The notes under the pieces: model-generated
Told to the model about the DNA's origin: nothing
Seen by the model: the letters and a program-made list of their open reading frames with translations, nothing else
The model's database searches: none
Sequence record: MT349887.1
Reading direction: 5' to 3' (one strand)
Source of the DNA: Acinetobacter phage 5W
DNA length: 43,032 nt
Made by a program: the position numbers and the translations under genes
Shown: positions 3,741 through 32,899 of the stretch, one piece after another
Layout: every line of letters starts with the position of its first letter
How positions within the stretch are numbered: the stretch's first letter is position 1

Positions 3741-4497
3741 GAAAGGGCGTAGAGCATCTAAGCCGAGAGCCGTGCACGTAAATCGCCGTGTAGAGCTATA
3801 TTACACACGGCAATTACTGGCTATCTCAAAATATTGTCAGGAACAAACTAAGGATTTAGTTATTCCTACAGTAGGCCAGAACATCGGAGATGCATGGTTC
3901 TCTGACATGATGGCGGCGTTTAGGGAAAAGCTCACAAAGTATGTTGTTGAGGTTTCCCGTCCGTTGGCCACAAAGGTTGTGACTGACACCCAAAAGGAAG
4001 TGGACAAGCAAATTGCAGAGCACACCAAAACAATTATTGGTGTGGATCTTACGCCGTTTTATCGAGCTGCTGATATCCAAGACGAGGTAGATCTAAACAT
4101 TACGGCAAATGTCAGTTTGATTAAGTCTATTCCGCAGCAATATGCCGATAAGCTTGAGGTATTAATCACCAATGCTTTGCAGACTGGACAAACTAATGAA
4201 GAGTTGGCCAAAGCTATTAAGCAATTAGGATTATCTACTGATTATCGTGCACGTCTTATTGCTAGTGATCAGATGGGCAAGATTAACGGCCAAATTAACC
4301 AAGCCCGACAGCTTTCAATGGGTGTTGAGACATACACATGGCAAACGGCGAAAGATGAGCGTGTAAGGCCAGATCATCAACATAAGCAGGGCAAGACATT
4401 TAGATGGGATTCACCGCCAGAAGGGGGACATCCGGGCCAGCCTATCCGTTGTCGTTGTACAGCGTTGCCTAACTATGAGGATATTTTAATTGACTAA
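3685..4497 (+). CDS. Head morphogenesis protein (Mu F-like / SPP1 gp7 family)
   Basis: C-terminal 'RPDHQHKQGKTFRWDSPPEGGHPGQPIRCRCT' is typical of the MuF/gp7 family; follows portal. Confidence 0.75.
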   Translation: MTTIIQILKPHLQQAKKRKKGRRASKPRAVHVNRRVELYYTRQLLAISKYCQEQTKDLVIPTVGQNIGDAWFSDMMAAFREKLTKYVVEVSRPLATKVVTDTQKEVDKQIAEHTKTIIGVDLTPFYRAADIQDEVDLNITANVSLIKSIPQQYADKLEVLITNALQTGQTNEELAKAIKQLGLSTDYRARLIASDQMGKINGQINQARQLSMGVETYTWQTAKDERVRPDHQHKQGKTFRWDSPPEGGHPGQPIRCRCTALPNYEDILID

Positions 4498-5032
4498 AGA
4501 TATCGTTTTTTTGCTTTAGTTCTTCTATTCTTCTTAAATATCCATTGTGGGCATAATAAATTCTTCCTTTAGAAGTTGTTAAATGTTTTAGGTATCGCTC
4601 CAATTCCTCTAAAGAAGGATTTTGTTTTTCATCACTTAACCCTGTAATTAGTTCATTAATAACTTGCTCGGGTGTTGTTAATAGATCTAATTGTTTTTTA
4701 AAGTATTCGTGATAGTTGTAGTCGAAGCCATCCAGTTTATCTTCGAGAGTTAAATTTTGAGCTTGTAGCATTTTCGAAAATTCAGATTTAAGAGCGTTAT
4801 TCTTGTGTTTAATCTCATAAATTAAATCCTTACATTCATAAGCGGCACTTAGTATTGAAAGTTTTAACTCAAAAAGTCTTTGATCCTGAGAGAGCTTAAT
4901 TTGTTTTTTCGCATATAAAGCTGCAATAACTGCAAAAATTAAACCTATCACAGCAAGAAGTGTTTGTAATTGGCCTGAATTAGCTCCGATTAATGCCCAT
5001 AAATAATTAAGATGATTCATTTTATTAACCAA
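4469..5032 (-). CDS. Antisense moron: membrane-anchored coiled-coil protein of unknown function
   Basis: 187 aa on the opposite strand inside the late head operon; one N-terminal TM ('LLAVIGLIFAVIAALYA') then predicted coiled coil; visibly AT-richer than flanks. Confidence 0.5.
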   Translation of the reverse strand: MVNKMNHLNYLWALIGANSGQLQTLLAVIGLIFAVIAALYAKKQIKLSQDQRLFELKLSILSAAYECKDLIYEIKHKNNALKSEFSKMLQAQNLTLEDKLDGFDYNYHEYFKKQLDLLTTPEQVINELITGLSDEKQNPSLEELERYLKHLTTSKGRIYYAHNGYLRRIEELKQKNDIFSQLKYPHS

Positions 5033-5070
5033 ATTGTTTTTACCGTAGTTTAATTCTTACTCTTTTAAAG

Positions 5071-5098
5071 AACCACCTAAACAGGTGGTTTTTATTTG
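5071..5098 (+). terminator. Rho-independent terminator (aaccacc-taaaca-ggtggtt + T-run)
   Basis: Perfect 7-bp stem followed by tttttattt on + strand; lies upstream of the - strand moron start. Confidence 0.55.
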
Positions 5099-5099
5099 G

Positions 5100-5408
5100 A
5101 TGAAATTTATGAAACGTAAAAAGTTTAGTAAAAAACGGTTTTATCGCCGTTTACAAGCACAGAAATTTGCTAAAGGCGGGTTTGTAACTGGTGGCGACTT
5201 CACTCCACTGTGGTTAATGTCTTGCTGTGACGGGTTTCCTAACTTGGCTAAGGCGGCGGGTAAGGCTGCTGAAAAGTTTCAAGAGGTGGTGGAAAGTTTA
5301 AAAGGATTGCAGCCGCCGAATATCAAACCCATTAAAACTAATATTTTTATTGATGGTGTAGATTTCGGTTCTGCTAAAGACTTTTCTGTTACCTATTCAA
5401 GAACGTAA
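5100..5408 (+). CDS. Hypothetical basic protein (isolated between two terminators)
   Basis: ORF track gives 5085 (GTG); ATGs at 5100/5109; very basic N-terminus 'KRKKFSKKRFYRR'; bounded by terminators on both sides. Confidence 0.35.
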   Translation: MKFMKRKKFSKKRFYRRLQAQKFAKGGFVTGGDFTPLWLMSCCDGFPNLAKAAGKAAEKFQEVVESLKGLQPPNIKPIKTNIFIDGVDFGSAKDFSVTYSRT

Positions 5409-5423
5409 TTTTGAAAATTAATA

Positions 5424-5447
5424 AAGCCACCTTCGGGTGGTTTTTTT
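5424..5447 (+). terminator. Rho-independent terminator (aagccacc-ttcg-ggtggttt + T7)
   Basis: GC stem with ttcg tetraloop and T-run, directly after stop of 5100..5408. Confidence 0.8.
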
Positions 5448-5460
5448 GTGAGAAAAACTT

Positions 5461-5658
5461 ATGTCAGAAAAGATACGCCGTGACGTCAAAGTTGATTTTG
5501 TAAAGGGGACTAATTTACTTCAGTTGGTAGATGTTGAGACCGGCATCCCATTTAGTCGCCAGCAAAGAACTACCGTTGAGTCTTATGAAGATAAGGGACT
5601 TCGGTATACGAAAATTACAGTCGAGTTCTTAATACCTCAGAAGGTACCTAATGACTAA
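5461..5658 (+). CDS. Hypothetical small protein
   Basis: 65 aa ORF directly after terminator, overlaps start of next gene (ATGA-type coupling). Confidence 0.4.
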   Translation: MSEKIRRDVKVDFVKGTNLLQLVDVETGIPFSRQQRTTVESYEDKGLRYTKITVEFLIPQKVPND

Positions 5659-6853
5659 GCACATTTACCAACTCAAAATTGGTGACTTTGCGCCAAGCGA
5701 ATCGACACGCTCATTTACCAAAGAGGGGTATCTGAAATGCGTCAATGTTCGCTTAGCTAAAGCGCCTCAAGTACGTCAGTACTATGCGTATGAGTTTCCA
5801 TCACTGGAAGGTTATACCGCTGATCAAGTCATTAATGTCTACACGCCTGCAGAAGAGCTTTTCAAGCCTGAGGCTATTCAAAGCTTCAATGGTGTAGACG
5901 CTACAGACTATCACCCGCCTAAGAATGAAATTAACGCATCTAACTGGAAGGATTATCACATTGGCTATTGTGAGAACGTTCGACAGGAAGGCGATTATCT
6001 GGTGGGTGATTTGCTCATTAAAGACAAGATCAGCATTGATTTGATCCAAAGCAACGAACGGCTAGAAATGTCGCTTGGCTATGGAGCCTTATTAATCGTT
6101 GAGCAGGGTACTGCGCCAGATGGCACGCCGTATCAAGCCAGATTTATCAATTTTATTGGCAATCACGTAGCACTCGTTAAATATGGCCGTTGTGGTGGTG
6201 ATTGCCGCATCGGTGACAAACAGCAAACTCCACCAAAGGGGAATAAATCAATGGAAGTAATTGTAAACGGTATCCGTTTTAACATCGGCGATAACACGCC
6301 TCTGGCCGATGCATTAAAGCAGCAACAAGAGCAGCTTGAAAACATGAAGGCTGCAAAACTTAAAGTGGGTGATAAGCAATTTTCAATCGGTGATGAGCTT
6401 GGAGCAATTCAAGCAGTCGTAGATCAGTTACATGCTGAAAAAACAGCTCTGGAGCAAAAAGTAGGTGATCTGGAAAAGAACCAGATGACTCCTGAAAAGC
6501 TTGAGCAAGCTGCGGCTGAACGTGCTGCTGTGATTGCCGATGCTAAGGCATTAGTACCAACAGTTAAAACTGAAGGCTGTACATGTGAGCAAATCAAGCG
6601 TGATGTTATTGCTGCTAAAGCGGGTGATGCATTAGTAACAGCTTTGATGGGTAACGTGTCGGTAGGCGATGCAAAGCCTGAGCAGATCGATACAACTTTC
6701 CGTGCCCTCTGTGCTGTGAAGGGTACTCAACCTTCTAACCCTGTAGGTGATGCACTTCACCAGCAACAAAGTGTTAAAGCTGGCGATGGTGACCCAGCAG
6801 GCGGTGGGGATGAAAAGACCTACAGTAAAGAAAACGCATACAAAACAATCTAA
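5651..6853 (+). CDS. Prohead protease/scaffold-like protein (XkdF/DUF2213-like N-terminus + coiled-coil scaffold C-terminus)
   Basis: 400 aa; C-terminal half strongly coiled-coil ('QQQEQLENMKAAKLKVGDK...LHAEKTALEQKVGDLEK'), position immediately upstream of decoration and capsid genes. Confidence 0.5.
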   Translation: MTKHIYQLKIGDFAPSESTRSFTKEGYLKCVNVRLAKAPQVRQYYAYEFPSLEGYTADQVINVYTPAEELFKPEAIQSFNGVDATDYHPPKNEINASNWKDYHIGYCENVRQEGDYLVGDLLIKDKISIDLIQSNERLEMSLGYGALLIVEQGTAPDGTPYQARFINFIGNHVALVKYGRCGGDCRIGDKQQTPPKGNKSMEVIVNGIRFNIGDNTPLADALKQQQEQLENMKAAKLKVGDKQFSIGDELGAIQAVVDQLHAEKTALEQKVGDLEKNQMTPEKLEQAAAERAAVIADAKALVPTVKTEGCTCEQIKRDVIAAKAGDALVTALMGNVSVGDAKPEQIDTTFRALCAVKGTQPSNPVGDALHQQQSVKAGDGDPAGGGDEKTYSKENAYKTI

Positions 6854-10296: not shown

Positions 10297-11064
10297 ATGG
10301 CTCAATATTTATTTGGTGCCGGCAAGATCTTTGCTACACCGATTCAAGATGTATACGGGCAACCGATTAGCAATCCCACACCAGTTGAAGTGGGAGTGAT
10401 GCAATCCGTTGGTGTAGATATTAGCTATGACTTAAAAGAGCTTTTTGGTCGTGGACAGTTCGCCGTAGATGCGGCGCGTGGTAAAGGTACCATTAAATGT
10501 AAAGCTTCTTTCGGGCGTATTAACGGAACTTTGTTAAATTCCATTTTCTTTGGTGGCGTTGTTGCTGAAGGTGGAATCGAAACAGTTTCCCAAACCATTA
10601 ATGGTGAAGTGATTCCGGCTGGTGGTTCAGTTACACCGGTTGTTCCTAACAGTGGGACATATGTAAAGGATCTTGGCGTAACAGATGCTAAAGCAATCCC
10701 ACTTAAACGTGTAGCTTCGGCACCAACAACCGGACAATACAGTGTAGCTGCAGCAACCGGTGCTTATACATTTGCTGCTGCCGATGCAGGTAAAACGGTA
10801 TTTATTAACTTCCGTTATTCAGCAATGGTAGCGGATGCTAAGTCAATCACCGTTTCAAACCTAGACATGGGCTATACGCCAGAGTTTGCCGTTGACCTGC
10901 AACGTGACTACAAAGGCAAGTTCATGCACATGAATTTCTTCCGTTGCACCAGTAACAAACTTGGATTCAGTTCAAAACAGGACGATTACGACATTCCTGA
11001 GTTTGAATTCCAGCCAATGGCTGACGATCTTAACCGTGTTTTCAAAATCGATTTATCGGAGTAA
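10297..11064 (+). CDS. Major tail (tube) protein
   Basis: 255 aa; strong RBS 'agagaggtcaaaataaATG'; first gene of tail operon followed by chaperone pair and tape measure. Confidence 0.6.
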   Translation: MAQYLFGAGKIFATPIQDVYGQPISNPTPVEVGVMQSVGVDISYDLKELFGRGQFAVDAARGKGTIKCKASFGRINGTLLNSIFFGGVVAEGGIETVSQTINGEVIPAGGSVTPVVPNSGTYVKDLGVTDAKAIPLKRVASAPTTGQYSVAAATGAYTFAAADAGKTVFINFRYSAMVADAKSITVSNLDMGYTPEFAVDLQRDYKGKFMHMNFFRCTSNKLGFSSKQDDYDIPEFEFQPMADDLNRVFKIDLSE

Positions 11065-11070
11065 TACCAA

Positions 11071-11385
11071 ATGCAATTTAAGCAAGTTGAAAACCCTCGC
11101 GGCTCTACAGTTGTTGTTGATGGTCAGCCATTTGTTTTTGCTCCATTGTCTCTTGGTGCAGTCGAGAAACTATTGCCGGCACTTCAATCATTCAAGCCAG
11201 ATGATGTTGGCACTGTGATTGATGTAGCACACAAATCTTTGAAGCGAAATTACCCCGACATTACTCGTGATGATGTGGCAGAGATGCTATTCATGGATCA
11301 GCTAACAGAAGTTATGGAAGCTGTAATGTCCGTGTCTGGTCTTAAAGGGAATGATGACAGCGCTGCAGGTGGCTCGGGGGAATAG
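11071..11385 (+). CDS. Tail assembly chaperone (G-like)
   Basis: 104 aa acidic protein between tail tube and tape measure; overlapped at 3' end by a -1 frame ORF (see next). Confidence 0.55.
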   Translation: MQFKQVENPRGSTVVVDGQPFVFAPLSLGAVEKLLPALQSFKPDDVGTVIDVAHKSLKRNYPDITRDDVAEMLFMDQLTEVMEAVMSVSGLKGNDDSAAGGSGE

Positions 11386-11645
11386 ATTGGGAGGAGCTGT
11401 ACACGCATTTAGTGCTCACCATGGGTAAAGATTACGACTATGTGCGTAATGAAATGGACCTGCCTAGATTAAGAGCATTAAGTGCGTATCAGCAAAACAA
11501 CCCTCCCGCGCATGTTGGGATACAACGGCTTTGCCGTATTTTGGAAGCGTTCATGGGAATCGAAGAAACCCCACAAGCTATCACCGTTTCAGATGATGAA
11601 GAAGATATGTTAGAAGTTTTGTCGAATTTCCCGCAGGGTGGTTAA
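11358..11645 (+). CDS. Candidate -1 frameshift extension of tail assembly chaperone (GT-like)
   Basis: -1 frame is open from 11358 (TGA at 11355-11357), overlapping the last 28 nt of the chaperone ORF; G5 run 'ggggg' at 11376-11380 precedes the chaperone stop. Track ORF 11412..11645 (GTG). Confidence 0.4.
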   Translation, partial: QRCRWLGGIDWEELYTHLVLTMGKDYDYVRNEMDLPRLRALSAYQQNNPPAHVGIQRLCRILEAFMGIEETPQAITVSDDEEDMLEVLSNFPQGG

Positions 11646-11709
11646 GGCTGCCCTATAGTATTCTTATCAATTAACATGGATAATATGAAAATGATAAGGA
11701 GACCTATCT

Positions 11710-12420
11710 GTGAAGTTTAATAAATTTTTTATATTAATATTTTTATCGATGTTTTTGTTATTATTAGCTAACTTTTTTAATCCTGATATATCAAGTTGGG
11801 TAAAAAATAAGCTTAATATTTCTACAAATTCAGAATTAAATCCATATTATAAAAAAATGGTAGTTGTTCATCAAAGAATGGATGGAAGCATTAGAGAAGG
11901 TTCCATATTCTTTTTAGGGGACAGTATAACTCAATCTTTAAACGTAAATTCAGTAACCAATCAGGGAATTAATTATGGGATCGGCGGGGATACAACTTTT
12001 GGTTTATTGAATCGCATAAAGTATTATAATTCACTTAATAAAGCTGATAAAATTTTAGTAGCTATAGGGATTAATGATTTTATTTTTAACAGAACCAGTA
12101 AAGAAATCATAGAAAATTATGAAAAAATATTTGAATTACTACCTAAAGACAAAAAAGTTTTTATAAACTCAGTGTTGCCAGTTACATACCAATATACAGA
12201 GAATTCCGATAAAATTACTATTAAACAAATTGTAGAATTGAATCATGAATTGAAAAAATTTTGTAGTCTAAAACCAAATTGTGAATTCATTAATTCTTAT
12301 GGATTATTTGCAGATTCGGCAGGATTTTTAAAAAAATCCTATGATACTGGAGATGGAATACATCTTAATACTGAGGGATATAATCTCTTGATTAAGATAT
12401 TGAAAGTTAAAATTAATTGA
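11710..12420 (+). CDS. Secreted SGNH/GDSL-family hydrolase (lipase/acyl-esterase-like) moron
   Basis: GTG start with RBS 'aaggaga'; N-terminal signal/TM 'FILIFLSMFLLLLANFF'; blocks 'FFLGDSITQ' (GDS), 'GIND', 'DGIHLN' (DxxH); very AT-rich versus flanking tail genes. Confidence 0.8.
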   Translation: MKFNKFFILIFLSMFLLLLANFFNPDISSWVKNKLNISTNSELNPYYKKMVVVHQRMDGSIREGSIFFLGDSITQSLNVNSVTNQGINYGIGGDTTFGLLNRIKYYNSLNKADKILVAIGINDFIFNRTSKEIIENYEKIFELLPKDKKVFINSVLPVTYQYTENSDKITIKQIVELNHELKKFCSLKPNCEFINSYGLFADSAGFLKKSYDTGDGIHLNTEGYNLLIKILKVKIN

Positions 12421-12445
12421 ATTTAAACAATTAAACCTTTTTTGA

Positions 12446-12469
12446 AACTGCCTCACGGCAGTTTTTTTG
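12446..12469 (+). terminator. Rho-independent terminator (aaactgcc-tcac-ggcagttt + T7)
   Basis: Perfect 8-bp stem and T-run directly after the GDSL gene. Confidence 0.8.
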
Positions 12470-12488
12470 TGCCTGTGAGATAGTAATT

Positions 12489-15400
12489 ATGAACAACAAT
12501 CGAGTGGAAGTACATGTCAGTGCAAAAACTTCTGAGCTCAAGGAAGGGATGCAAGATGCTGAAAAAATAGTTTCAGATGCTTCCAAGAAAATTGAAAGCA
12601 CTGGAAAGAGTATCGATTTTAAACTTGATCTTTCAAATCTAAAGTCAGAGTTAAATGGTTTTGCAACAAGCCTTTCGGATAAATTTAAGACCGTAGGCAA
12701 TGATATTAAGAGTTCGCTGACTAATGGCCTATCTTTAGTCAGGGGCGGTTTTTTTGTTGGTATTGGCCAAGAGATTGCTAGAAGTGCAGCGGAAGCGGTT
12801 GCAGCAATTCCTGATCTTGTATCTGCAGTGGGTAAGGCTTCAAAAGAGTTAGAGATTCAAGCCCGATTAGCAAACTCGAATACTTTAGAATTTCAAGAAT
12901 GGGCATTTGCTGCCAAAAAAGTAAACGTGGAGCAGGACAAGCTATCGGACATCATGAAAGATGTAAACGATAAGTTTGGTGACTTCATGCAAACTGGTGG
13001 TGGTGAGATGGCCGATTTCTTTGAGAAGATCGCGCCAAAAGTCGGTGTCACTGCCCAACAATTTAAAGGCTTATCTGGTCCGCAAATCCTAGAAAAGTAC
13101 TACCAGACTTTGCAAAAAGCCAATGTGTCACAGGCTGAAATGACTTTCTATATGGAAGCCATTGCGAACGATGCAACATTATTAGCTCCATTATTGGATA
13201 ACAACGGTCAAAAATTAAAAGAGTACGCTAAACAGGCTCATGATTTAGGCGTAATCATGAGTGAAGATGCCATAGCTGCTACCAAAGAATTTAATACGTC
13301 CCTTGAGACTGTCCAAACAACACTTCAAGGAGTATTAACCCGTATTGCAGCACAAGCAGCTCCATCCCTTACTGAATTAGCTAATCAATTTTTAACTTTT
13401 GCGGTTGATTCCAAGGATGCCATTGATGATTCAATTAAATCGATTATTGGCATTTTTGAAAGCTTGTTTAGTATTCTAAGTGAGCAGTTCACAACGATTG
13501 GAGCAATCTGGAGTGACTTGACTGGAAGCATTGGAGACGATGCAAATAAACAGATTGGCTTTATGGATGCTATATCTGTAGTACTACGAGCATTAGGTGT
13601 TGTAGTTACCGGCTTTCAGGTAGGCGTTCAATCTGCTTTTGCAATCATTCGTGCCGTTGTAGTCACGGTATGCCAAGCTTTAATCATTGCTTTTAATGGC
13701 CTTATGGCTGGCTTTGATATGGTACGAAGTACTATTCAGTATGGTCTGGATGTATTACAGGTAAAGTTTCAAACATTTGGTAGCGTTGTAAATAACATCC
13801 TCCATTTTAACTTCTCAGGTGCAAAATCGGCATGGGAGGGTGGTTTATCTCAGCTTGGTAGTATTACTGATCGTTATACAAACCAAATGAAAGGACGAAT
13901 GGCTGACCTGAAAAACTCTTGGAATGCAGGAGCCACTACAGCAGCCAATTCACTTGTCACGGCTGGTAAAAGAATTCTTGAAGTTACAACTGCTGGCAAT
14001 CAGAAGATTACCAACTATGTATTTAAGGATCCTACTAAACCTTTTGAGCCACCTAAACCACCTAAGCTAGGCCTAGGTACTGCACCACCAAATACTAAAC
14101 TTGGTATTGGTACTGGGGAGAAGGACGAAAAAGGCGGCTCTAAATCGTCTGCAAAATCTAAAGCAGAACAAGAGGCTAAGGAACGGCAGCGACAAGCTGA
14201 GCAGGCAGCTAAAGCACTTGCTGATATTCGGTATAAATATGCATCCGAAGAAAAGAAAGTGGCTCTAGATCTTCAAAAGGCGTTAGATGAGATTGAAAAA
14301 TCCAAGATGACTGCAGATGAAAAAGCTGCTGCGAAAGTCAAAGCCGAAAAGGATGCATCCGACAAGATCATTGCTATTCGTTTAAAAGAGTTTGAGGAAT
14401 ACAAAAAAGCTCGTGAAGAACAAATAGACAATTATCAACAGCAAGCACAGCGCCTTTATGAAATTGAAGCGGCACGGATCCAAGCTGAATTTGATGCCAA
14501 GAAAATTTCAAATGTCCGTAAAGTTCAGTTGGAAAAACAGCTTGAAGATCAATTACGTGAAATTAAACGGCAAGGTCTTTTAGAGCGTTTAGCTTTGGAA
14601 AATGAGCAGACCAACATTACAGGCAAACAAGGTAATCAAAACCAAATCACAAACAACATTTCTGATTTAGAGACAGACCAGAAAGTTGCTGACACTAAGT
14701 CTATGGGCTTAATCAGTGATGCGGAAATGAAAGACTTTGAGGCCAAGTTCGGTGGCTTTACTTCTCGACTTTCTAACCTTTGGGATCAGGGTATTCAGTC
14801 TCTTATGAATGGTACCCTCACTTGGAGTAACGCAACTAAAGCAGTGCTTGCTGACATGGGGCAATTTGCCTTGCAAACAGCTACTAAAGAGCTACAAGGC
14901 TGGTTAAGAATCCAAGCTATTAAATTGGCTCGTAAACTTGGATTTGTCGGTGCTGAAACAGCCGCTGAAGCTTCTGGCCAAGCTGCTCAAACAGGGGCAA
15001 CCATTGCAGGTGAAGCAACACGTACCAGTGTTACTGCAGCTGGTGGTTTAGCTCGTTTAGGCTTAAAAGCTGCTGAAGCTATCAAAGGCATCATGATGTC
15101 TGCATGGGAAGCAATGGCCGGAGCTTTTAAAGCGATGGTCGCAATTCCATATGTTGGTCCAATTCTTGCCGTTGGTGCAGGTGCGGCTGCTTTTGGTTTA
15201 GTGGCTGGACTTGCTGGAAAGATTAAATCTGCTCGTGGCGGTTACGACATTCCTGCCGGTGTAAACCCTATGACGCAATTGCACGAAGAAGAAATGGTAT
15301 TGCCGAAACAGCATGCCAATACCATTCGTGCCCTAGGTAAATCTATGGCCAATGGTGGTCTGGGAGGTGGTGGCGAGAACACTGCACAGCCCGTTATTTT

Positions 15401-15512
15401 CAGTCCTACCATTCAGGCTTGGGATTCAAAGGATGTTCGACGCTTCTTCAAGAAGCATGGTAGTGAATTAGCAGACAGTCTTAAGGGCTATAACCGTAAT
15501 TTTGGTAAATAA
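12489..15512 (+). CDS. Tail tape measure protein
   Basis: 1007 aa, long alpha-helical/coiled-coil with Ala/Gly-rich hydrophobic C-terminal region; position after chaperone pair. Confidence 0.85.
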   Translation: MNNNRVEVHVSAKTSELKEGMQDAEKIVSDASKKIESTGKSIDFKLDLSNLKSELNGFATSLSDKFKTVGNDIKSSLTNGLSLVRGGFFVGIGQEIARSAAEAVAAIPDLVSAVGKASKELEIQARLANSNTLEFQEWAFAAKKVNVEQDKLSDIMKDVNDKFGDFMQTGGGEMADFFEKIAPKVGVTAQQFKGLSGPQILEKYYQTLQKANVSQAEMTFYMEAIANDATLLAPLLDNNGQKLKEYAKQAHDLGVIMSEDAIAATKEFNTSLETVQTTLQGVLTRIAAQAAPSLTELANQFLTFAVDSKDAIDDSIKSIIGIFESLFSILSEQFTTIGAIWSDLTGSIGDDANKQIGFMDAISVVLRALGVVVTGFQVGVQSAFAIIRAVVVTVCQALIIAFNGLMAGFDMVRSTIQYGLDVLQVKFQTFGSVVNNILHFNFSGAKSAWEGGLSQLGSITDRYTNQMKGRMADLKNSWNAGATTAANSLVTAGKRILEVTTAGNQKITNYVFKDPTKPFEPPKPPKLGLGTAPPNTKLGIGTGEKDEKGGSKSSAKSKAEQEAKERQRQAEQAAKALADIRYKYASEEKKVALDLQKALDEIEKSKMTADEKAAAKVKAEKDASDKIIAIRLKEFEEYKKAREEQIDNYQQQAQRLYEIEAARIQAEFDAKKISNVRKVQLEKQLEDQLREIKRQGLLERLALENEQTNITGKQGNQNQITNNISDLETDQKVADTKSMGLISDAEMKDFEAKFGGFTSRLSNLWDQGIQSLMNGTLTWSNATKAVLADMGQFALQTATKELQGWLRIQAIKLARKLGFVGAETAAEASGQAAQTGATIAGEATRTSVTAAGGLARLGLKAAEAIKGIMMSAWEAMAGAFKAMVAIPYVGPILAVGAGAAAFGLVAGLAGKIKSARGGYDIPAGVNPMTQLHEEEMVLPKQHANTIRALGKSMANGGLGGGGENTAQPVIFSPTIQAWDSKDVRRFFKKHGSELADSLKGYNRNFGK

Positions 15513-17089: not shown

Positions 17090-18916
17090 ATGGCAGTTCC
17101 TGATAAAGACGCCCTGATTGGGCCTACGGTCACAGAGGCACAATTTAAAACCAATCTTGGTGCAATTGTGGATTTCATTAAACCAATTGAATCTCAAAGC
17201 CCTAACTATGCAACCACTGCTTTGCTGACTGCTTCAAGACCCGTTAAAAACCAAAGTTATGCAAAAGCCCTAGATACAGGGAAGGTATGGTATTGGAATA
17301 AACCAGCAGGATCACCAGAAGGAAATTATTGGGTAGAGACTGAGCTAAGTGATCTTGATCAGGCAATAACCTATACAGATGGGCAATTTAATCTAGCAAT
17401 AAAAAGAGCAGTTTTTGAAACTTTATCACAGCTATTTGGACTGGCTAAATCAGACGATCCAACTAAAATTGGAGTTTTGTTGGACGGTGTTGGTCGTATC
17501 TTGTTGGGTTATGACCTAGAAAAAGATACAGGTATTTATGCGGGGATGCTTGAGCAAGTTGTTGAAATTATTCCGGGGCTTAAGCTTTATAACGATGGTC
17601 GATATTTAGGTTTGTTAGGTGATTCTAGTAGGCAGATATTGATCGGTTATGACATGCTTAATGACTTGCCCATCATTGCGGGCCTTGATGAGTTGATCAA
17701 TGGTGCGGGCGGCACAAATACAAAACCTGTTCCAGCCGAAAGAAACCATATAGTTGGATACGGACAGTCTTTAAAAACAGGTGCTACCGCAACAGTTATT
17801 CTAAGTATTCTTCAGCCTTATTTTAATGTGACATTCGGTACGGGTCCGCGTATGGACTCTGCTGCAACTTCGGTCATTCCATTGGTTGAGCAATTTAATA
17901 ATCCAAGTTCAGACGGCTACAGCAATCGCGGTGAGACTTGTTGTTCTGGTGCTGCAAATTATGCAAGCCGTGCAATGATGCTTGAAAACGGTATTGATCC
18001 GAAAGATCATGTGATTTTTGCAAGCACTGCTGCACATGGTGGGTATCGTATAGATCAGTTAAAAAAAGGGTCTGAATGGTATAGCTTTTTGATTAAGCAT
18101 ATAACTGAAGCAAAACGGTTGAGTGGAGATAAGACTTACAAAACGCAAGTTATTGATTGGGGACAGGGTGAAAATGACGCCATTTATACTGTTCGAACCC
18201 CCTATGCGGTTTATAAGTCTGAACTTGCACAGCTGCAGTTAGATGTAAGCAGTGATATTAAAGAAATCACCGGGCAATCTGAAACAGCACCATTTATTAC
18301 TTACCAGATGTCATATGCTGCCCGCACATGGCCTGATATTGCAAAAGCTCAATTAGATTTAGTTCGAGAAAGCCCGTATTTTATGCTTTCAACACCTATG
18401 TATCACATGCCATATGCAGAAGACAGCATTCATTTAACAAATGTTGGTTACAAGTGGCTTGGTGCTTATGTTGGTCGAGCTTATAAGCAATATATGATTG
18501 ATGGGCGAAAATCAGATTTCATCAACCCAAAAGTAGCTCAACTTGTAGGTGATGAAATACACATTCATTTTGATGTGCCGAAAGCGCCACTTGTGCTTGA
18601 TACGGCAACTTTGGCTGCTACTACAGACAACGGCTTTAAGGTTTTAGTAAATGATACTGCGGCAACGATTTCCGGCATTAGCGCAGAAAATGACAAAGTT
18701 ATTATCAAACTGTCTAGCCCACCTGCAACAGGTGCATCGGTAATTGTTAGATACGCCCTAGATTACCTAGGTGCTGGATTATCAATAGATGGCGGTGCTT
18801 CCGGCAATCTCCGTGATTCAACAACAGATTCAATTGAAATTGCAGGTGTAGAAAGACCGCTATATCACGTATGCCCGCATTTTGAATTAACTGCATTTAC
18901 AGATAAAGGAATTTAA
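17090..18916 (+). CDS. Tail fiber/spike-like protein with SASA/SGNH carbohydrate acetylesterase-like domain
   Basis: 608 aa; N-terminal tandem ~33-aa repeat; central 'HIVGYGQSLKTG' (GQS nucleophile block) and 'AEDSIHLTNVGYKWLGAYVGRAY' (DxxH block) resemble sialate-O-acetylesterase/SGNH; beta-rich C-terminal domain. Confidence 0.55.
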   Translation: MAVPDKDALIGPTVTEAQFKTNLGAIVDFIKPIESQSPNYATTALLTASRPVKNQSYAKALDTGKVWYWNKPAGSPEGNYWVETELSDLDQAITYTDGQFNLAIKRAVFETLSQLFGLAKSDDPTKIGVLLDGVGRILLGYDLEKDTGIYAGMLEQVVEIIPGLKLYNDGRYLGLLGDSSRQILIGYDMLNDLPIIAGLDELINGAGGTNTKPVPAERNHIVGYGQSLKTGATATVILSILQPYFNVTFGTGPRMDSAATSVIPLVEQFNNPSSDGYSNRGETCCSGAANYASRAMMLENGIDPKDHVIFASTAAHGGYRIDQLKKGSEWYSFLIKHITEAKRLSGDKTYKTQVIDWGQGENDAIYTVRTPYAVYKSELAQLQLDVSSDIKEITGQSETAPFITYQMSYAARTWPDIAKAQLDLVRESPYFMLSTPMYHMPYAEDSIHLTNVGYKWLGAYVGRAYKQYMIDGRKSDFINPKVAQLVGDEIHIHFDVPKAPLVLDTATLAATTDNGFKVLVNDTAATISGISAENDKVIIKLSSPPATGASVIVRYALDYLGAGLSIDGGASGNLRDSTTDSIEIAGVERPLYHVCPHFELTAFTDKGI

Positions 18917-23145: not shown

Positions 23146-23688
23146 ATGAACATTGAACAATATCTTGACGAACTCATTAAGCGTGAAGGCGGGTATGTAA
23201 ATAACCCAGCTGATCGAGGAGGGGCAACTAAGTATGGAATTACTGAAGCAGTTGCTCGAGCGAATGGATTCAAAGGTAATATGCGAGATTTACCTCTGGA
23301 TGTAGCCAAAGCAATTTACCGCAAAAACTATTGGACAGCTCCACGATTTGACCAAGTAAATGCAGTTTCTTCTGCAGTAGCTGAAGAGCTTCTAGACACT
23401 GGTGTGAATTGCGGTACCGGATTTGCAAAACCTCTTTTACAACGAGCTTTGAACTTGCTTAATAACCAAGGTAAAGCTGGATATGCAGATTTAGAGGTTG
23501 ATGGTGTTTATGGCTCAGCAACGCTAGGTGCCCTTAAAACATACTTGTCAAAACGTGGGAAAGAAGGTGAGAAGGTTCTGGTGCGAGTGCTCAATATTAT
23601 GCAAGGGCAACGCTACATTGAAATCTGTGAGCGTAATCCAAAGCAGGAACAGTTTTTCTATGGCTGGATTGCTAACCGGATCGGCTAG
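23146..23688 (+). CDS. Endolysin: GH108 lysozyme-like domain + PG_binding_3 peptidoglycan-binding domain
   Basis: N-terminus 'EGGYVNNPADRGGATKYGIT' is the GH108 signature; RBS 'aaggaaaagttaaATG'. Confidence 0.8.
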   Translation: MNIEQYLDELIKREGGYVNNPADRGGATKYGITEAVARANGFKGNMRDLPLDVAKAIYRKNYWTAPRFDQVNAVSSAVAEELLDTGVNCGTGFAKPLLQRALNLLNNQGKAGYADLEVDGVYGSATLGALKTYLSKRGKEGEKVLVRVLNIMQGQRYIEICERNPKQEQFFYGWIANRIG

Positions 23689-24121: not shown

Positions 24122-24316
24122 ATGTCTTCACAGTTAATCAAAATTCATTATCATGCATATTCTCGCGTTGCAGATCTATTAGCAGATCTAGATAAGAAAG
24201 GAGAGGTCACTAAAATTTATGACCTCAATGGCAACGAATTAAAAATTAATTTCTTGCGTGACGAAGTTTATTATAAAAAAGTCTGGTGGCATTTTCAGAA
24301 GAAGCAAGGCGGTTAA
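24122..24316 (+). CDS. Hypothetical small ORF adjacent to integrase 3' end
   Basis: 64 aa ORF following an AT-rich intergenic region with TTGCGCAA palindromes; no recognisable domain. Confidence 0.25.
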   Translation: MSSQLIKIHYHAYSRVADLLADLDKKGEVTKIYDLNGNELKINFLRDEVYYKKVWWHFQKKQGG

Positions 24317-25509
24317 ACCGCCCAGCTATCCACAATATTAGCCCAGTCCTGTAGCATTTTTCGCCTGCTTTCTAAATATTTGGCATGGTTATATGTGGCC
24401 CTAGTTTTATTACCATCTGCATGCGCTAATTGTTTTTCAATCCATTTGTCATCGTAATCCTTTTCATTTAACAAGGTTGATGCAGTGGCACGAAAGTCAT
24501 GAGCAGTGACATCAGACAAGCCAATGTAATCGAGCATTTTATTCATTGTAGTAGCGGAGAGCATCCCATCTTGATAGATGGCTGGAAAAACATATTCACG
24601 ATTACCTACAATGTTGCGCTGTTCTTGAAGAATATTAAAAACTTGGTCAGACATAGGAACGATATGAATACGTTTCTTTTTCATCATCTCTTTTGGGAAT
24701 GTAATTGTTCTAGCTTCAAAATCAACATATTCCCATTTCATGCGGCGGATCTCGATAGTCCTGAGCATAGAGTAGAGCATTACAAGGCCAGCATTTTTAA
24801 CTGTAGTAGATCCACCATAGCTATTTAATTTATTTCTAAGTTGCACAGCCTCATATTTTTCCATGGGTCTGGCATGTTCTATTTCGGGACGTTCTACAAC
24901 GTTTTTAACGGCATAGGTTGGATCATAGTCGGCTCTAAGTGTGGCGATTGCATAACGCATTACGCCGCCAATAAAAGTACGATTTTGAATTGCTGACACT
25001 TCGCCAGTACCATGGTTTTTTTGACGCTTAACTCGTGCAATCGTCTTTTTCATGATAGTCAAAACGTCTGCTGAGGTGACTTCTTTAATATCCTTATCAC
25101 CAATAACTTTTAAAATATCTTTATCTAAGGCGCGTTGAAAAGCTTCTTGATACCTTTCTGAACGATTATTTAATTTTTCTGCTTTATATTCTGCAGCAAC
25201 ATGTTTAAAGAGAACCCTATTGTCATACTCATCAGATTTAGCCTTTTTTTGGTTTTCTTTTTCTTCAACTGGATTTATACCGCTTGCAACTAAAGATTTA
25301 GCTTCATCTCTTTTAGTACGGGCTTCAGCTAATCCCACAATAGGGTATTCACCTAAGCTCATCATTTGTGTTTTTTTGAGCCATTGAAAACGATAGCGCC
25401 AATACTTCTTGCCATTAGGTTTTATTTCAACACACAAACCATCGGAATCACCAAGCCTATAAAGCTTTTCTTTCGGTTTTGCACTTCTAATTTTTGAGTC
25501 ACTTAACAT
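24313..25509 (-). CDS. int: Tyrosine integrase (P4-type, DUF4102 arm-binding N-domain)
   Basis: 398 aa; N-terminal 'LSDSKIRSAKPKEKLYRLGDSDGLCVEIKPNGKKYWRYRF' is the DUF4102 arm-binding N-domain; C-terminal catalytic domain carries conserved R, H-x-x-R ('AHDFRATAST') and Tyr ('RATYNHAKY') positions. Confidence 0.9.
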   Translation of the reverse strand: MLSDSKIRSAKPKEKLYRLGDSDGLCVEIKPNGKKYWRYRFQWLKKTQMMSLGEYPIVGLAEARTKRDEAKSLVASGINPVEEKENQKKAKSDEYDNRVLFKHVAAEYKAEKLNNRSERYQEAFQRALDKDILKVIGDKDIKEVTSADVLTIMKKTIARVKRQKNHGTGEVSAIQNRTFIGGVMRYAIATLRADYDPTYAVKNVVERPEIEHARPMEKYEAVQLRNKLNSYGGSTTVKNAGLVMLYSMLRTIEIRRMKWEYVDFEARTITFPKEMMKKKRIHIVPMSDQVFNILQEQRNIVGNREYVFPAIYQDGMLSATTMNKMLDYIGLSDVTAHDFRATASTLLNEKDYDDKWIEKQLAHADGNKTRATYNHAKYLESRRKMLQDWANIVDSWAV

Positions 25510-32767: not shown

Positions 32768-32899
32768 ATTGCATAATCCCAATATCTACTATAAAAACTA
32801 TTGGCAATCTACACATTACACACTAAAACATCAATAAATATTACTATCTAATAAGTGATATACCCCACATTTAAAAGACTGTGTCGGGTTCACAGTTTA

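Follow-up and report, generated by a model that had tools for sequence, protein, structure and literature searches.

Acinetobacter phage 5W (MT349887.1) carries, between a probable pair of tail chaperone genes and the tape-measure gene, a real and intact gene for a 236-aa SGNH/GDSL hydrolase that is predicted to be membrane anchored and acetylesterase-like. Related prophages hold unrelated genes at the same site, and we favour, with a probability of roughly 55%, the explanation as a whole that the gene is accessory cargo and that its product is an anchored periplasmic esterase of acetylated glycans. The window, i.e., the entire stretch of 43,032 nt that was analysed, is a mosaic relative of vB_AbaSI_5, to which it is 97.7-99.9% identical over 8481-42781, about 90% identical in the head genes, and unrelated at 4492-5660. 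The cargo gene is already annotated in the GenBank record of vB_AbaSI_5 and is briefly mentioned in the paper describing that phage; the finding is sound but ordinary, as the gene has been annotated before, comes from a common enzyme family and occupies a well-known kind of genomic position. The slot is composed of the following features:

11071-11385, + strand: 104-aa gene downstream of that for the major tail protein, probable G-like tail assembly chaperone (PHROG 7947, labelled function unknown; gene order)
11358-11645 (annotated start 11412), + strand: 77-aa gene, probable T-like chaperone part, in the -1 frame relative to the 104-aa gene; left neighbour of the slot (PHROG 8018)
11635-11654, + strand: left-boundary hairpin T1, across the stop codon of the 77-aa gene (folding and comparison of 17 loci)
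11655-11709, + strand: upstream spacer with the RBS AAGGAG (conserved in the 91%-identical allele)
11710-12420, + strand: cargo gene, 236-aa predicted membrane-anchored SGNH/GDSL acetylesterase-like protein (Pfam, PHROG, AlphaFold2, Foldseek, dN/dS)
12444-12468, + strand: right-boundary intrinsic terminator T2, with a 9-bp stem, a TCAC loop and a 7-T run (folding, compensatory change, 18 of 20 loci)
12489-15512, + strand: tape-measure protein gene, flanking the slot on its right (PHROG 2854, tail length tape measure protein, 3e-232)

The first-pass annotation had described a very AT-rich gene with a GTG start and an RBS within 11646-12469, an interval that comprises the upstream spacer, the cargo gene and the terminator. 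Both points hold: the ORF begins with the GTG at 11710, AAGGAG (11696-11701) lies 8 nt ahead of it, and the GC content of 0.255 and the GC3 of 0.194 compare with values of 0.41-0.45 and 0.29-0.40, respectively, in the backbone (eight flanking structural genes), so that the composition of the gene is foreign. The ATG at 11749, used as the start in the record of vB_AbaSI_5, has no comparable RBS upstream, and the annotation of the gene in that record is truncated at its start.

Each edge of the slot is marked by a conserved hairpin. On the left, the 104-aa gene follows the gene for a 255-aa putative major tail protein (10297-11064) and precedes the tape-measure gene, an order that makes a chaperone role probable. 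The open frame of the 77-aa gene reaches back to 11358 and thereby into the end of the 104-aa ORF, where a GGGGGAA run is found, and each of the 17 related prophages from other species of Acinetobacter has a homologue of the 77-aa gene, at 54-67% identity. Hairpin T1, AGGGTGGT-TAAG-GCTGCCCT, folds with -10.4 kcal/mol in a 42-nt context, and an equivalent hairpin exists in 17 of 17 loci compared (-9 to -18.6 kcal/mol). The arms vary between loci while pairing is kept, e.g., GGGCGG/TCGCCC or GGGGTAAC/GTTGCCC, and homology among loci with different cargo stops just past T1.

On the right, the T2 hairpin GAAACTGCC-TCAC-GGCAGTTTT occupies 12444-12465 and is followed by a T-run to 12468, about 20 nt upstream of the tape-measure start. 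Folded alone (31 nt), it reaches -12 kcal/mol with z = -4.0; a 63-nt fold around it yields a competing structure with z = -1.9, so that the claim of stability rests on the 31-nt fold together with the comparison between loci. In the 91%-identical allele (L003), a compensatory T>C / A>G pair keeps the stem, and a hairpin with a T-run is found 21-32 nt ahead of the tape-measure start in 18 of 20 related loci, with any cargo and with differing stems. Downstream of the right-edge hairpin, the related loci share a motif that begins with ATGCCT[GA] and is followed by an RBS. A simple consensus terminator scan of 11000-13000 missed T2 and reported no terminator, a result that is overruled by direct folding, the compensatory change and the conservation in 18 of 20 loci. 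Because T2 is conserved whatever the cargo, it belongs to the slot, i.e., to the backbone, and not to the insert. Thus, the rho-independent terminator that had been ascribed to the end of the gene does exist as a hairpin with a T-run, but it is a backbone feature at the right edge of the slot and not the gene's own.

The slot of the window was compared with 19 related loci, that is, the 17 from other species plus L002 and L003. Among these 19, the esterase is shared only with L003, and the others carry unrelated cargo between the same conserved flanks; it is absent from all 17 prophages of other Acinetobacter species. In each of those 17, the 77-aa gene and the tape-measure gene enclose 640-3300 nt of cargo with a lower GC content, and in all loci compared the slot is poorer in GC than its flanks. 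The cargo of the other species consists mostly of lipoproteins, zinc-ribbon/TM proteins and signal-peptide proteins, with one HigBA toxin-antitoxin pair; in MD-2021a, homology extends no further than the 77-aa gene, and the slot is occupied by another exported protein, of 194 aa. Pfam returned nothing for most of the other slot cargo, and PADLOC gave no credible defence match for nine other slot proteins. Unrelated low-GC cargo at the same site in relatives indicates a real cargo (moron) hot spot, and the moron-type site in the tail operon that had been recognised from the window is therefore seen as a slot with variable cargo in 17 related prophages.

Lambdoid morons of the HK97/HK022 type were reportedly described by Juhala, Hendrix and colleagues in 2000 and are said to be defined by their own promoter. 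The cargo gene resembles them in being an extra gene between conserved late genes, with deviating composition, patchy presence and an intrinsic terminator after it; it differs in that its terminator belongs to the conserved backbone and that a promoter of its own was not detected. A promoter-tool scan found none on the + strand upstream of the gene, and the best sigma-70 consensus match in the 64-nt spacer, TTATCA-17-GAAAAT, scores 8/12, a value equalled by 110 of 500 shuffles (22%), in a consensus-based search that weak or non-canonical promoters could escape. A TTGNTT-N16-17-TATAAA-like element seen by eye in several other cargo cassettes was discarded, its scores not being significant. As no convincing promoter was found, expression of the gene in the lysogen, on which the lysogenic conversion proposed in the first-pass annotation depends, is only putative, and the gene may be read only from the late tail transcript.

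Comparison of the gene with the 91%-identical allele, from which it differs at 8% of nucleotides, gives a dN/dS of 0.13, the signature in sequence of a gene that is maintained under purifying selection. In 8 of 8 prophage contexts, the allele is found at this site, and in one context, L004, to which five further places are similar, the tape-measure gene is missing and the esterase is intact. The clusters of the esterase family contain 233, 49 and 29 member sequences, and P0002 is found in 82 blocks of the collection. Within the gene, the following elements (all + strand) can be assigned:

11722-11778: N-terminal hydrophobic helix (signal anchor or signal peptide), codons 5-23 (Kyte-Doolittle, AlphaFold2)
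11917-11931: Block I, GDSIT, residues 70-74, with Ser72 as the predicted nucleophile (G70 and S72 invariant in 40 homologues)
11977-11994: Block II, GIGGDT, residues 90-95, with the oxyanion-hole glycine (G90 invariant in the 40 homologues)
12067-12078: Block III, GIND, residues 120-123, with the oxyanion-hole asparagine (G120 and N122 invariant in the 40 homologues)
12352-12369: Block V, DGIHLN, residues 215-220, with Asp215 and His218 of the predicted triad (conservation in the 40 homologues)

Membership in the SGNH superfamily, which had been proposed from the motifs GDSIT, GIND and DGIHLN, is upheld in that all three are present and Pfam matches, PDB sequence, fold and profile all agree. 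The protein exceeds the gathering thresholds of PF13472 (6.4e-18, 66.3 bits versus a cut-off of 32.9) and PF00657 (1.1e-10, 42.4 bits versus 23.6), and it matches PHROG 14008, labelled function unknown, over its full length (4.5e-114). An NCBIfam search retrieved no family or equivalog, and the only match to PADLOC models was a marginal one (9e-4, 16.7 bits) to an unrelated CARF model. Block I aligns with the GNSIT of the sialate O-acetylesterase 6NJC/7PZG. In the 40 homologues, I91, G92, G93, D94 and T95 of Block II are each at least 90% conserved; in Block V, conservation is complete at H218 and N220 and at least 90% at D215.

The AlphaFold2 model (pLDDT 94.5) has a three-layer alpha/beta/alpha fold. 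Foldseek yielded 102 matches in the PDB at E ≤ 0.001, the best 50 of which are overwhelmingly SGNH/GDSL-family; ranks 1-19 all belong to the EstA / PAF-AH Ib-like acetylesterase branch, with target-normalised TM scores of 0.85 to 2HSJ and 0.83 to 7PZG (rmsd 2.3 Å). Matching PDB entries by sequence are 2HSJ (1e-13) and 6NJC/7PZG (4e-12), and the family profile scores 7PZG at 6e-45, 6NJC at 2e-44, 2HSJ at 9e-38, PAF-AH at about 1e-24, TesA at 4e-9 and OatA at 8e-6, the last as a partial match only. Judged by these alignments and the predicted fold, the protein is an SGNH hydrolase with intact predicted catalytic motifs, and its nearest branch is that of the gut Bacteroidetes sialate O-acetylesterase and PAF acetylhydrolase, far from TesA-type lipases and OatA-type transferases. 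Profile comparison with SGNH families thus leaves it inside the superfamily, nearest to EstA/PAF-AH and not to TesA. The PAF-acetylhydrolase-like affinity listed in the first-pass annotation is consistent with 2HSJ being the best match by single sequence and by fold, whereas the lipase reading offered there is disfavoured by the profile scores of the sialate O-acetylesterase and TesA.

EstA of Phocaeicola (Bacteroides) vulgatus (6NJC, 7PZG), the best profile match and a top fold match, is likewise a single-domain SGNH protein of about 200 residues with four blocks (GNSIT, GISGD, GIND and DGLHL); it is an exported enzyme that acts on an O-acetylated nonulosonic acid and serves nutrient foraging in gut Bacteroidetes (PMC5512079). 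However, the two are only about 25% identical, EstA is not phage cargo, and the cargo protein differs by its long, hydrophobic N-terminus and by a juxtamembrane helix that is conserved. 2HSJ is a "putative PAF acetylhydrolase" of Streptococcus pneumoniae, itself uncharacterised, and the PAF-AH Ib/2HSJ branch, to which the cargo protein is assigned by sequence comparison and modelling, consists of SGNH enzymes whose specificity is for short acyl (acetyl) groups. PAF-AH Ib differs in being cytosolic and eukaryotic and in acting on the acetyl group of a lipid, and neither it nor 2HSJ has the membrane anchor or phage context of the cargo protein.

The N-terminal signal or TM helix that had been noted is evident: MKFNK is followed by FFILIFLSMFLLLLANFF, a stretch of 18 hydrophobic residues, the 19-residue Kyte-Doolittle window peaks at 2.34 from residue 6 and stays at or below 0.84 everywhere past residue 40, and AlphaFold2 predicts a helix at residues 5-23. 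An equivalent basic-then-hydrophobic N-terminus is present in nearly all family members, and more distant homologues of E. coli and Enterobacter have cleavable classical signal peptides. A comparison of the N-termini of the cargo family revealed no small-x-small cleavage site conserved across homologues; the lone signal peptidase I candidate, LLA|N, lies inside the hydrophobic stretch, and P0004 reads LIL-N and most homologues LLKSDF at this position. An inner-membrane anchor with a periplasmic domain is therefore more likely than a secretion signal, as far as can be read from the sequences. The description of the product as secreted stands with respect to the N-terminal export signal, but release from the cell is likely too strong a claim, as there is no conserved cleavage site.

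The surroundings of the gene and of its homologues bear on the substrate. The phage has a second predicted esterase domain, in a tail fibre:

17090-18916, + strand: 608-aa tail fibre with a SASA-type carbohydrate acetylesterase domain (Pfam PF03629 SASA, PHROG 4201)

The SASA domain spans residues 303-466 of the fibre (5.8e-9), which also matches PHROG 4201, tail fiber protein (2.7e-212). Fibre homologues that are 38-68% identical occur in 8 of 8 GDSL-bearing prophages examined, a co-occurrence among closely related, phylogenetically non-independent prophages, the loci from other species ending before the fibre gene. Distant members of the esterase family are found in polysaccharide/EPS clusters, beside a hexapeptide acetyltransferase, on plasmids and in phages, and P0024 (32% identity) has an Acyl_transf_3 (AT3) gene 13 nt downstream. 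Homologues in E. coli lie in prophages beside tail-fibre genes, and in a P22-like E. coli phage a distant homologue lies between the integrase and the tailspike, the classical position of O-antigen conversion genes. The phage endolysin is a GH108 muramidase; as the endolysin region is 10 kb from the cargo gene, membership of the latter in the lysis cassette was rejected, and so was a virion structural protein, in view of the export helix and the absence of the gene from relatives.

Several other explanations of the gene have to be weighed. Its location among the tail genes, on the same strand, and the failure to find an upstream promoter would be expected of a lytic helper that is expressed late from the tail-operon transcript, i.e., a periplasmic esterase that de-acetylates peptidoglycan for the GH108 N-acetylmuramidase or destroys the receptor on the cell or on debris. 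Acinetobacter is among the genera for which O-acetylated peptidoglycan is produced or predicted (review, PMC6783866), and the esterase-type tail fibre of the virion implies an acetylated receptor. However, the slot of most relatives holds unrelated cargo, and the cargo function is thus dispensable for lysis and assembly; hairpin T1 intervenes between the chaperone gene and the cargo, and the prophage that lacks the tape-measure gene keeps the esterase intact. Moreover, the fold is nearest to EstA/PAF-AH, and the best 50 of 102 fold matches do not include 4K7J, a peptidoglycan esterase of the Ape1 type, so that we regard a late lytic role as unlikely. The foreign composition, the many unrelated genes taken up by the slot and the lack of a visible promoter would also suit a selfish passenger, a recent AT-rich acquisition in a permissive intergenic site with no role for phage or host. 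The low dN/dS between alleles that are 8% apart in nucleotides, the intact catalytic residues and the wide spread of the gene (the clusters and the 82 blocks described above) argue against such a passenger and leave it a small probability.

An N-terminal anchor followed by an extracytoplasmic SGNH domain is the layout of DltD and AlgJ, and the product could accordingly be imagined as one half of a transferase, i.e., an anchored SGNH domain that takes acetyl from a host AT3/MBOAT protein and adds it to a surface glycan, in the manner of PatB, AlgJ/AlgX, DltD and OafA/OatA. Cross-talk of unfused SGNH proteins with AT3/MBOAT proteins is documented, and PatB, AlgJ/AlgX, DltD and the SGNH domains of OatA and OafA/B are extracytoplasmic, in some cases tethered by one N-terminal helix, and act on envelope glycans (PMC9558356). 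The AT3 gene next to P0024 fits a transferase and an esterase role equally, but an acyltransferase partner is present in only 1 of 10 distant family contexts examined (32-46% identity), and no AT3/MBOAT gene was found among the 64 annotated genes of vB_AbaSI_5 or the window ORFs scanned, so that any partner might be encoded by the host. In addition, all four hydrolase blocks are canonical, and the profile is about 40 orders of magnitude nearer to true esterases than to the SGNH domain of OatA, which ranks only 42nd by fold; a transferase half is quite improbable. Even less probable is an enzyme of the TesA type, i.e., a periplasmic lipase, lysophospholipase or thioesterase with host membrane lipids as its substrates. 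In its favour are the wording of source annotations ("lysophospholipase L1-like esterase" or "GDSL lipase"), the periplasmic location of TesA, itself an SGNH enzyme, and the matches of the family profile to TesA chains. However, TesA is matched only at about 4e-9 as compared with 6e-45 for the sialate O-acetylesterase; TesA is not among the best 50 of 102 fold matches, and the contexts of the relatives are polysaccharide loci and not lipid metabolism.

For the accessory acetyl-glycan esterase, we infer topology, acetyl-glycan substrate, expression timing and biological benefit as follows. The slot, with a conserved hairpin at either end and with the tail-chaperone pair and the tape-measure gene as neighbours, would be a recombination hot spot in a lineage of temperate Acinetobacter siphophages, and the gene would be a moron residing there. 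Its N-terminal hydrophobic helix would direct the product into the Sec pathway and would most likely be retained as an inner-membrane anchor, and a short linker (residues 35-44) would hold the Ser72-Asp215-His218 SGNH domain in the periplasm. This domain, which falls into the branch of short-acyl (acetyl) esterases together with PAF acetylhydrolase Ib and the sialate O-acetylesterase EstA, would remove O-acetyl from envelope glycan passing through or sitting in the periplasm, and the predicted esterase thus probably strips acetyl groups from host surface sugars. Units of the capsule or of LOS are candidate glycans, with acetylated nonulosonic acids as a possibility. The surface would be altered as it is recognised by phages, including the phage itself with its esterase-bearing tail fibre, and the benefit might lie in superinfection exclusion or in a converted surface of the lysogen, possibly also in progeny that are spared re-adsorption to debris.

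Enzymes and genes with related tasks are known from Acinetobacter and its phages. Capsule deacetylase activity is known among Acinetobacter phage tailspikes (PMC11126041), and esterases of these phages include the capsule deacetylase gp41 of Aristophanes and the SASA fibres of DMU1, SH-Ab 15497 and fEg-Aba01 (PMC11126041, PMC11058221). These are phage SGNH-fold enzymes for O-acetyl groups of surface polysaccharides, as is the predicted fibre esterase of the window phage, but they are virion-borne, fused to trimeric receptor-binding proteins, and act outside at adsorption. The cargo protein, in contrast, is small and stand-alone, has an export signal, is encoded in a dispensable slot, and would act inside the producing cell. 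Prophages of A. baumannii carry the capsule O-acetyltransferases Atr29/Atr30 (PMC6586298), which, like Sf6 Oac and the P22 gtr-type loci, are accessory genes of temperate phages that alter capsule or O-antigen acetylation. The prophage O-acetyltransferases are multi-pass AT3 membrane proteins that add acetyl, whereas the SGNH hydrolase of the slot is predicted to remove it. A more specific version of the esterase reading, which is doubtful but conceivable, is that the prophage converts its host by erasing an acetyl mark: the enzyme would strip O-acetyl from capsule or LOS, perhaps from pseudaminic- or legionaminic-type sugars, the mark would be the one that the SASA fibre recognises, and the lysogen would become invisible to the phage itself and to other acetyl-dependent phages. 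Tentatively, such an esterase could be seen as a "receptor-destroying enzyme" that works inside the cell, the reverse counterpart of the O-acetyltransferases known from phages; a literature search retrieved no report of conversion by a prophage esterase.

Capsule chemistry of A. baumannii, including O-acetylation, decides the efficacy of therapeutic phages and depolymerases and how the immune system views the cell. If acetyl groups of capsule or LOS are indeed removed by the cargo protein, K-locus typing would mispredict the surface structure and phage susceptibility of lysogens, and phage-driven surface variation would have an esterase route besides the known one through acetyltransferases. 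The slot, for its part, has precise boundaries, is present in many Acinetobacter species and gathers exported proteins; it is worth mining for superinfection-exclusion and envelope-modifying genes, and it offers a natural insertion site for the engineering of these phages.

The first-pass annotation had described, at 11646-12469, an AT-rich gene with a GTG start and a ribosome-binding site of its own, which would encode a secreted SGNH hydrolase. The sequence features so described were borne out: the interval consists of a 64-nt spacer, a single ORF and a hairpin with a T-run, and the named motifs and the hydrophobic N-terminus are all present.

11710-12420 (+): predicted esterase ORF, GTG start, 236 aa

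The GC content is 25.5% (GC3 19.4%), and that of the eight surrounding structural genes is 41-45%. The GTG start is favoured because of a ribosome-binding site (AAGGAG, 11696-11701, with the GTG 8 nt further on), the full-length match to PHROG 14008 (residues 2-236 on profile positions 1-234), the NCBI models of a 91%-identical Acinetobacter allele, which also have 236 aa, and the family alignment. No AAGGAG-type site precedes the in-frame ATG at 11749. It is this internal ATG (position 12387 of PQ382036.1) that was chosen as the CDS start in GenBank for phage vB_AbaSI_5 ('GDSL-type esterase/lipase family protein', 223 aa), and the resulting model loses the basic N-terminus and one third of the hydrophobic helix.

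In the description of vB_AbaSI_5, an A. baumannii siphophage with a temperate lifestyle (PMC13187125), the esterase gene receives one sentence. Identity to the window is 99.9% at 10297-13500, 97.7-99.9% over 8481-42781 and about 90% in the head genes, and 4492-5660 is unrelated; whole-length comparison thus rejected the possibility that the window is the vB_AbaSI_5 genome and identified a mosaic relative. The unrelated stretch, which lies between a minor capsid gene and a DUF2213 gene, forms another variable slot of low GC (0.31-0.36), with two ORFs without a family match in the window (4469-5032, -, and 5085-5408, +), a HEPN-domain protein in vB_AbaSI_5 and two other small ORFs in the prophage-bearing contig MD-2021a.

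The SGNH blocks were found as claimed, GDSIT at residues 70-74, GIND at 120-123 and DGIHLN at 215-220, together with block II (GIGGDT, 90-95). Membership in the superfamily is upheld by profile searches, as both PF13472 and PF00657 exceed the Pfam thresholds, and G70, S72, G90, G120, N122 and H218 are invariant among 40 homologues, D215 being nearly so. NCBIfam contains no model covering the family, and PHROG 14008 is listed with function unknown. In single-sequence searches of the PDB the best match was a putative PAF acetylhydrolase of S. pneumoniae (2HSJ, 1e-13), with the Phocaeicola vulgatus sialate O-acetylesterase second (6NJC/7PZG, 4e-12); the family profile gave a sharper ranking.

Structural relatives of the esterase protein, with family-profile E-values
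7PZG: 6e-45
6NJC: 2e-44
2HSJ: 9e-38
PAF-AH Ib: about 1e-24
TesA thioesterase/lysophospholipase: 4e-9
OatA transferase domain: 8e-6, partial match

An AlphaFold2 model (40-sequence alignment, pLDDT 94.5) contains two N-terminal helices, one at 5-23 and a short one at 26-34, and a linker of lower confidence at about 35-44 before the SGNH domain. Foldseek against the PDB ranked 2HSJ first, the sialic acid esterase next (both with target-normalised TM 0.83-0.85) and PAF-AH after these, with OatA at rank 42 at best. On the basis of the two rankings, the protein is predicted to belong to the acetyl-specific esterase branch of the SGNH superfamily. Of the 'acyl-esterase or lipase' proposed earlier, the esterase half is therefore retained and a lipase appears less likely; of the families put forward for comparison, PAF-acetylhydrolases are close and TesA is distant.

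The N-terminal 23 residues comprise MKFNK and 18 hydrophobic residues, an arrangement that is nearly universal in the family (one or two basic residues, then about 20 hydrophobic ones) and is followed there by a conserved amphipathic segment with the consensus K-S-D-F-I-x-R-V. In distant homologues from E. coli and Enterobacter the N-terminus is a classical signal peptide with a cleavage site (...GWA|QE and ...CYA|DM). For the window protein an uncleaved signal anchor, which would tether the catalytic domain in the periplasm, is favoured because the sole candidate signal-peptidase site, LLA|N, lies within the hydrophobic stretch and is not kept even in a 50%-identical homologue. The predicted helix thus stands, but probably as an anchor and not as a secretion signal.

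The proposal that the gene occupies a moron site in the tail operon gained strong comparative support. Homology of MD-2021a to the window (92.6%) does not extend past the stop codon that closes the 77-aa gene on the left, and an unrelated 194-aa protein with an N-terminal hydrophobic helix precedes the tape-measure gene. When one genome per Acinetobacter species was scanned, the tail module turned up at 17 further loci, distributed over about 16 species. All 17 loci keep the 77-aa and tape-measure genes and have 640-3300 nt of lower-GC DNA between them; the esterase was found in none of the 17, and unrelated cargo occupies the site. The cargo consists mostly of exported proteins, that is, lipoproteins (with a lipobox in at least eight loci), signal-peptide proteins and zinc-ribbon/TM proteins, the latter in three loci (L021, L023, L024; PHROG 14275) and with weak similarity (1.6e-6) to a 'superinfection exclusion Sie-like' PHROG. 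The slot of an Acinetobacter populi prophage (L022:6349-6946, -) encodes, on the opposite strand, a HigB-like toxin (PF05015, 1.7e-17) and an HTH antitoxin-like (HigA-like) ORF; it alone among the slots approaches the backbone in GC (0.41), and a search ahead of its tape-measure gene gave no terminator-like hairpin.

Both borders of the slot are marked by hairpins. The left one (T1, 11635-11654) overlaps the stop codon of the 77-aa gene and recurs in 17/17 loci (-9 to -18.6 kcal/mol), with both arms varying and pairing preserved, and similarity between loci with different cargo is lost just past it. The right one (T2) has the form GAAACTGCC-TCAC-GGCAGTTTT at 12444-12465, followed by 7 T's to 12468, and folds at -12 kcal/mol (z = -4.0); a simple terminator scanner did not detect it, and longer sequence context permits a competing fold. 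In 18 of 20 loci, independent of cargo, a GC-rich hairpin with a T-run lies 21-32 nt ahead of the tape-measure start, with varying stems (AACCACC/GGTGGTT, AACCGCC/GGCGGTT, AGCTCGT/ACGAGCT, ACCCGC/GCGGGT and others) and, downstream of the T-run, a common motif ATGCCT[GA]... and a ribosome-binding site. Between the window and the 91%-identical A. baumannii allele (P0002) the T2 stem differs by two substitutions, T>C and A>G, that compensate each other. Hence the 'perfect rho-independent terminator' exists, but as a feature of the backbone and not of the esterase gene, and the slot can be described as a cassette site in the tail operon flanked by two conserved predicted RNA/DNA hairpins. From the position of T2, late transcription would have to pass it, by read-through or antitermination, to reach the tape-measure gene. 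A promoter of its own, as expected for a moron, was not seen, because the 64-nt spacer gave no convincing sigma-70-type promoter in either a tool scan or our own scan with shuffled controls; its best match (TTATCA-17-GAAAAT, 8/12) was equalled by 110 of 500 shuffles and would place the transcription start within the ribosome-binding site.

Left of the slot, the 77-aa frame (annotated start 11412) is open from 11358 in -1 relative to the 104-aa gene, and the overlap (11358-11385) has a GGGGGAA run and no canonical X_XXY_YYZ heptamer; the frame arrangement would suit programmed -1 frameshifting of the G/GT type, as in tail assembly chaperones. Elsewhere, a 760-aa protein (30500-32782, -), encoded beside the repressor within a low-GC part (0.30-0.33) of the early region, combines an N6_Mtase domain with an HSDR_N-like N-terminus and may be either a methylase acting alone or a restriction-modification fusion. 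A 216-aa ORF (41308-41958, +; GC 0.27-0.29) that matches PHROG 8083 (function unknown), at the early/late junction's right end, is a candidate for a further cargo gene.

Indirect evidence points to envelope glycans as the substrate. The contexts of ten distant homologues (32-46% identity; 31% in P0040) were as follows.

P0024: AT3 acyltransferase 13 nt downstream
P0012: cluster with polysaccharide deacetylase, glycosyltransferases, flippase
P0018: exosortase EPS locus
P0019: adjoins hexapeptide acetyltransferase
P0006: mobilisable plasmid
P0007: ParA/ANT element
P0025: phage-like contig
P0015: amid IS elements
P0027: context uninformative
P0040 (31% identity): E. coli prophages, adjoins tail-fibre assembly gene

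In Mu/P2-like E. coli prophages (L044-L046:6001-6690) an SGNH homologue is convergent with the tail-fibre assembly gene, and in the P22-like Lederbergvirus vB_EcoP-683R2 (L047:2127-2663) one lies between integrase and tailspike, the place taken by gtr in P22 and by oac in Sf6; these homologues have cleavable signal peptides and conversion-type positions. The window itself encodes a second esterase domain, in a tail fibre that is labelled 'hypothetical protein' in GenBank.

17090-18916 (+): tail fibre, 608 aa (PHROG 4201), SASA carbohydrate-acetylesterase domain at residues 303-466 and SWM repeat
23146-23688: GH108 muramidase
24313-25509: integrase

The fibre is probably a deacetylating receptor-binding protein; related SASA-type proteins of Acinetobacter siphophages have been described as probable capsule-deacetylating receptor-binding proteins (PMC11058221, PMC11126041). 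Fibre homologues occur in 8/8 GDSL-bearing prophages, and MD-2021a has a CotH protein at that position. Prophage acetyltransferases of A. baumannii are known to 4-O-acetylate pseudaminic and legionaminic acids of the K46/K5 capsules (PMC6586298).

The P0002 allele occupies the same slot in 8/8 A. baumannii prophage contexts shown, and at 8% nucleotide difference from the window dN/dS is 0.13, indicating purifying selection. A neutral passenger is disfavoured by this dN/dS and by the prevalence of the gene. One A. baumannii prophage variant (L004:6779-7810, and five similar places) lacks the tape-measure gene, the two genes behind it and the tail fibre's first half, and its esterase gene is intact; this defective prophage that retains its cargo mildly supports a value independent of virion production. 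A late-expressed helper, which would either deacetylate peptidoglycan so that the GH108 muramidase can cut it or rid debris of receptors, is consistent with the lack of a visible promoter and with the listing of Acinetobacter among genera that make, or are predicted to make, O-acetylated peptidoglycan (PMC6783866), but it is a poor fit for a dispensable slot and for the fold affinities. The P0024 neighbourhood with its AT3 gene suggests that the protein could serve as a transferase together with an AT3 or MBOAT protein of the host; however, no such partner gene is annotated in vB_AbaSI_5 or was found among the window ORFs scanned, and the family profile is strongly on the hydrolase side. A TesA-like lipase is disfavoured by the same profile (4e-9 versus 6e-45 for 7PZG).

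It should be noted that the gene has been annotated and briefly discussed in print, and that the enzyme family and the moron concept are familiar. The first-pass annotation was largely right, with the corrections that the helix is probably an anchor, the enzyme more likely an acetylesterase than a lipase, the terminator part of the backbone and a promoter not visible. New are the hairpin-bracketed, genus-wide cargo slot that collects exported proteins, and the co-occurrence in one phage of an internal esterase and a tail fibre that bears an esterase domain. Beyond an exported, SGNH acetylesterase-like cargo protein, all steps are what we infer: in view of the homologue contexts, the SASA fibre and the known prophage acetyltransferases, the facts would be joined best by a periplasmic acetylesterase that would modify the acetylation of capsule or LOS and might thereby alter phage recognition. 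The importance of the finding is modest, unless this receptor-erasing hypothesis holds.
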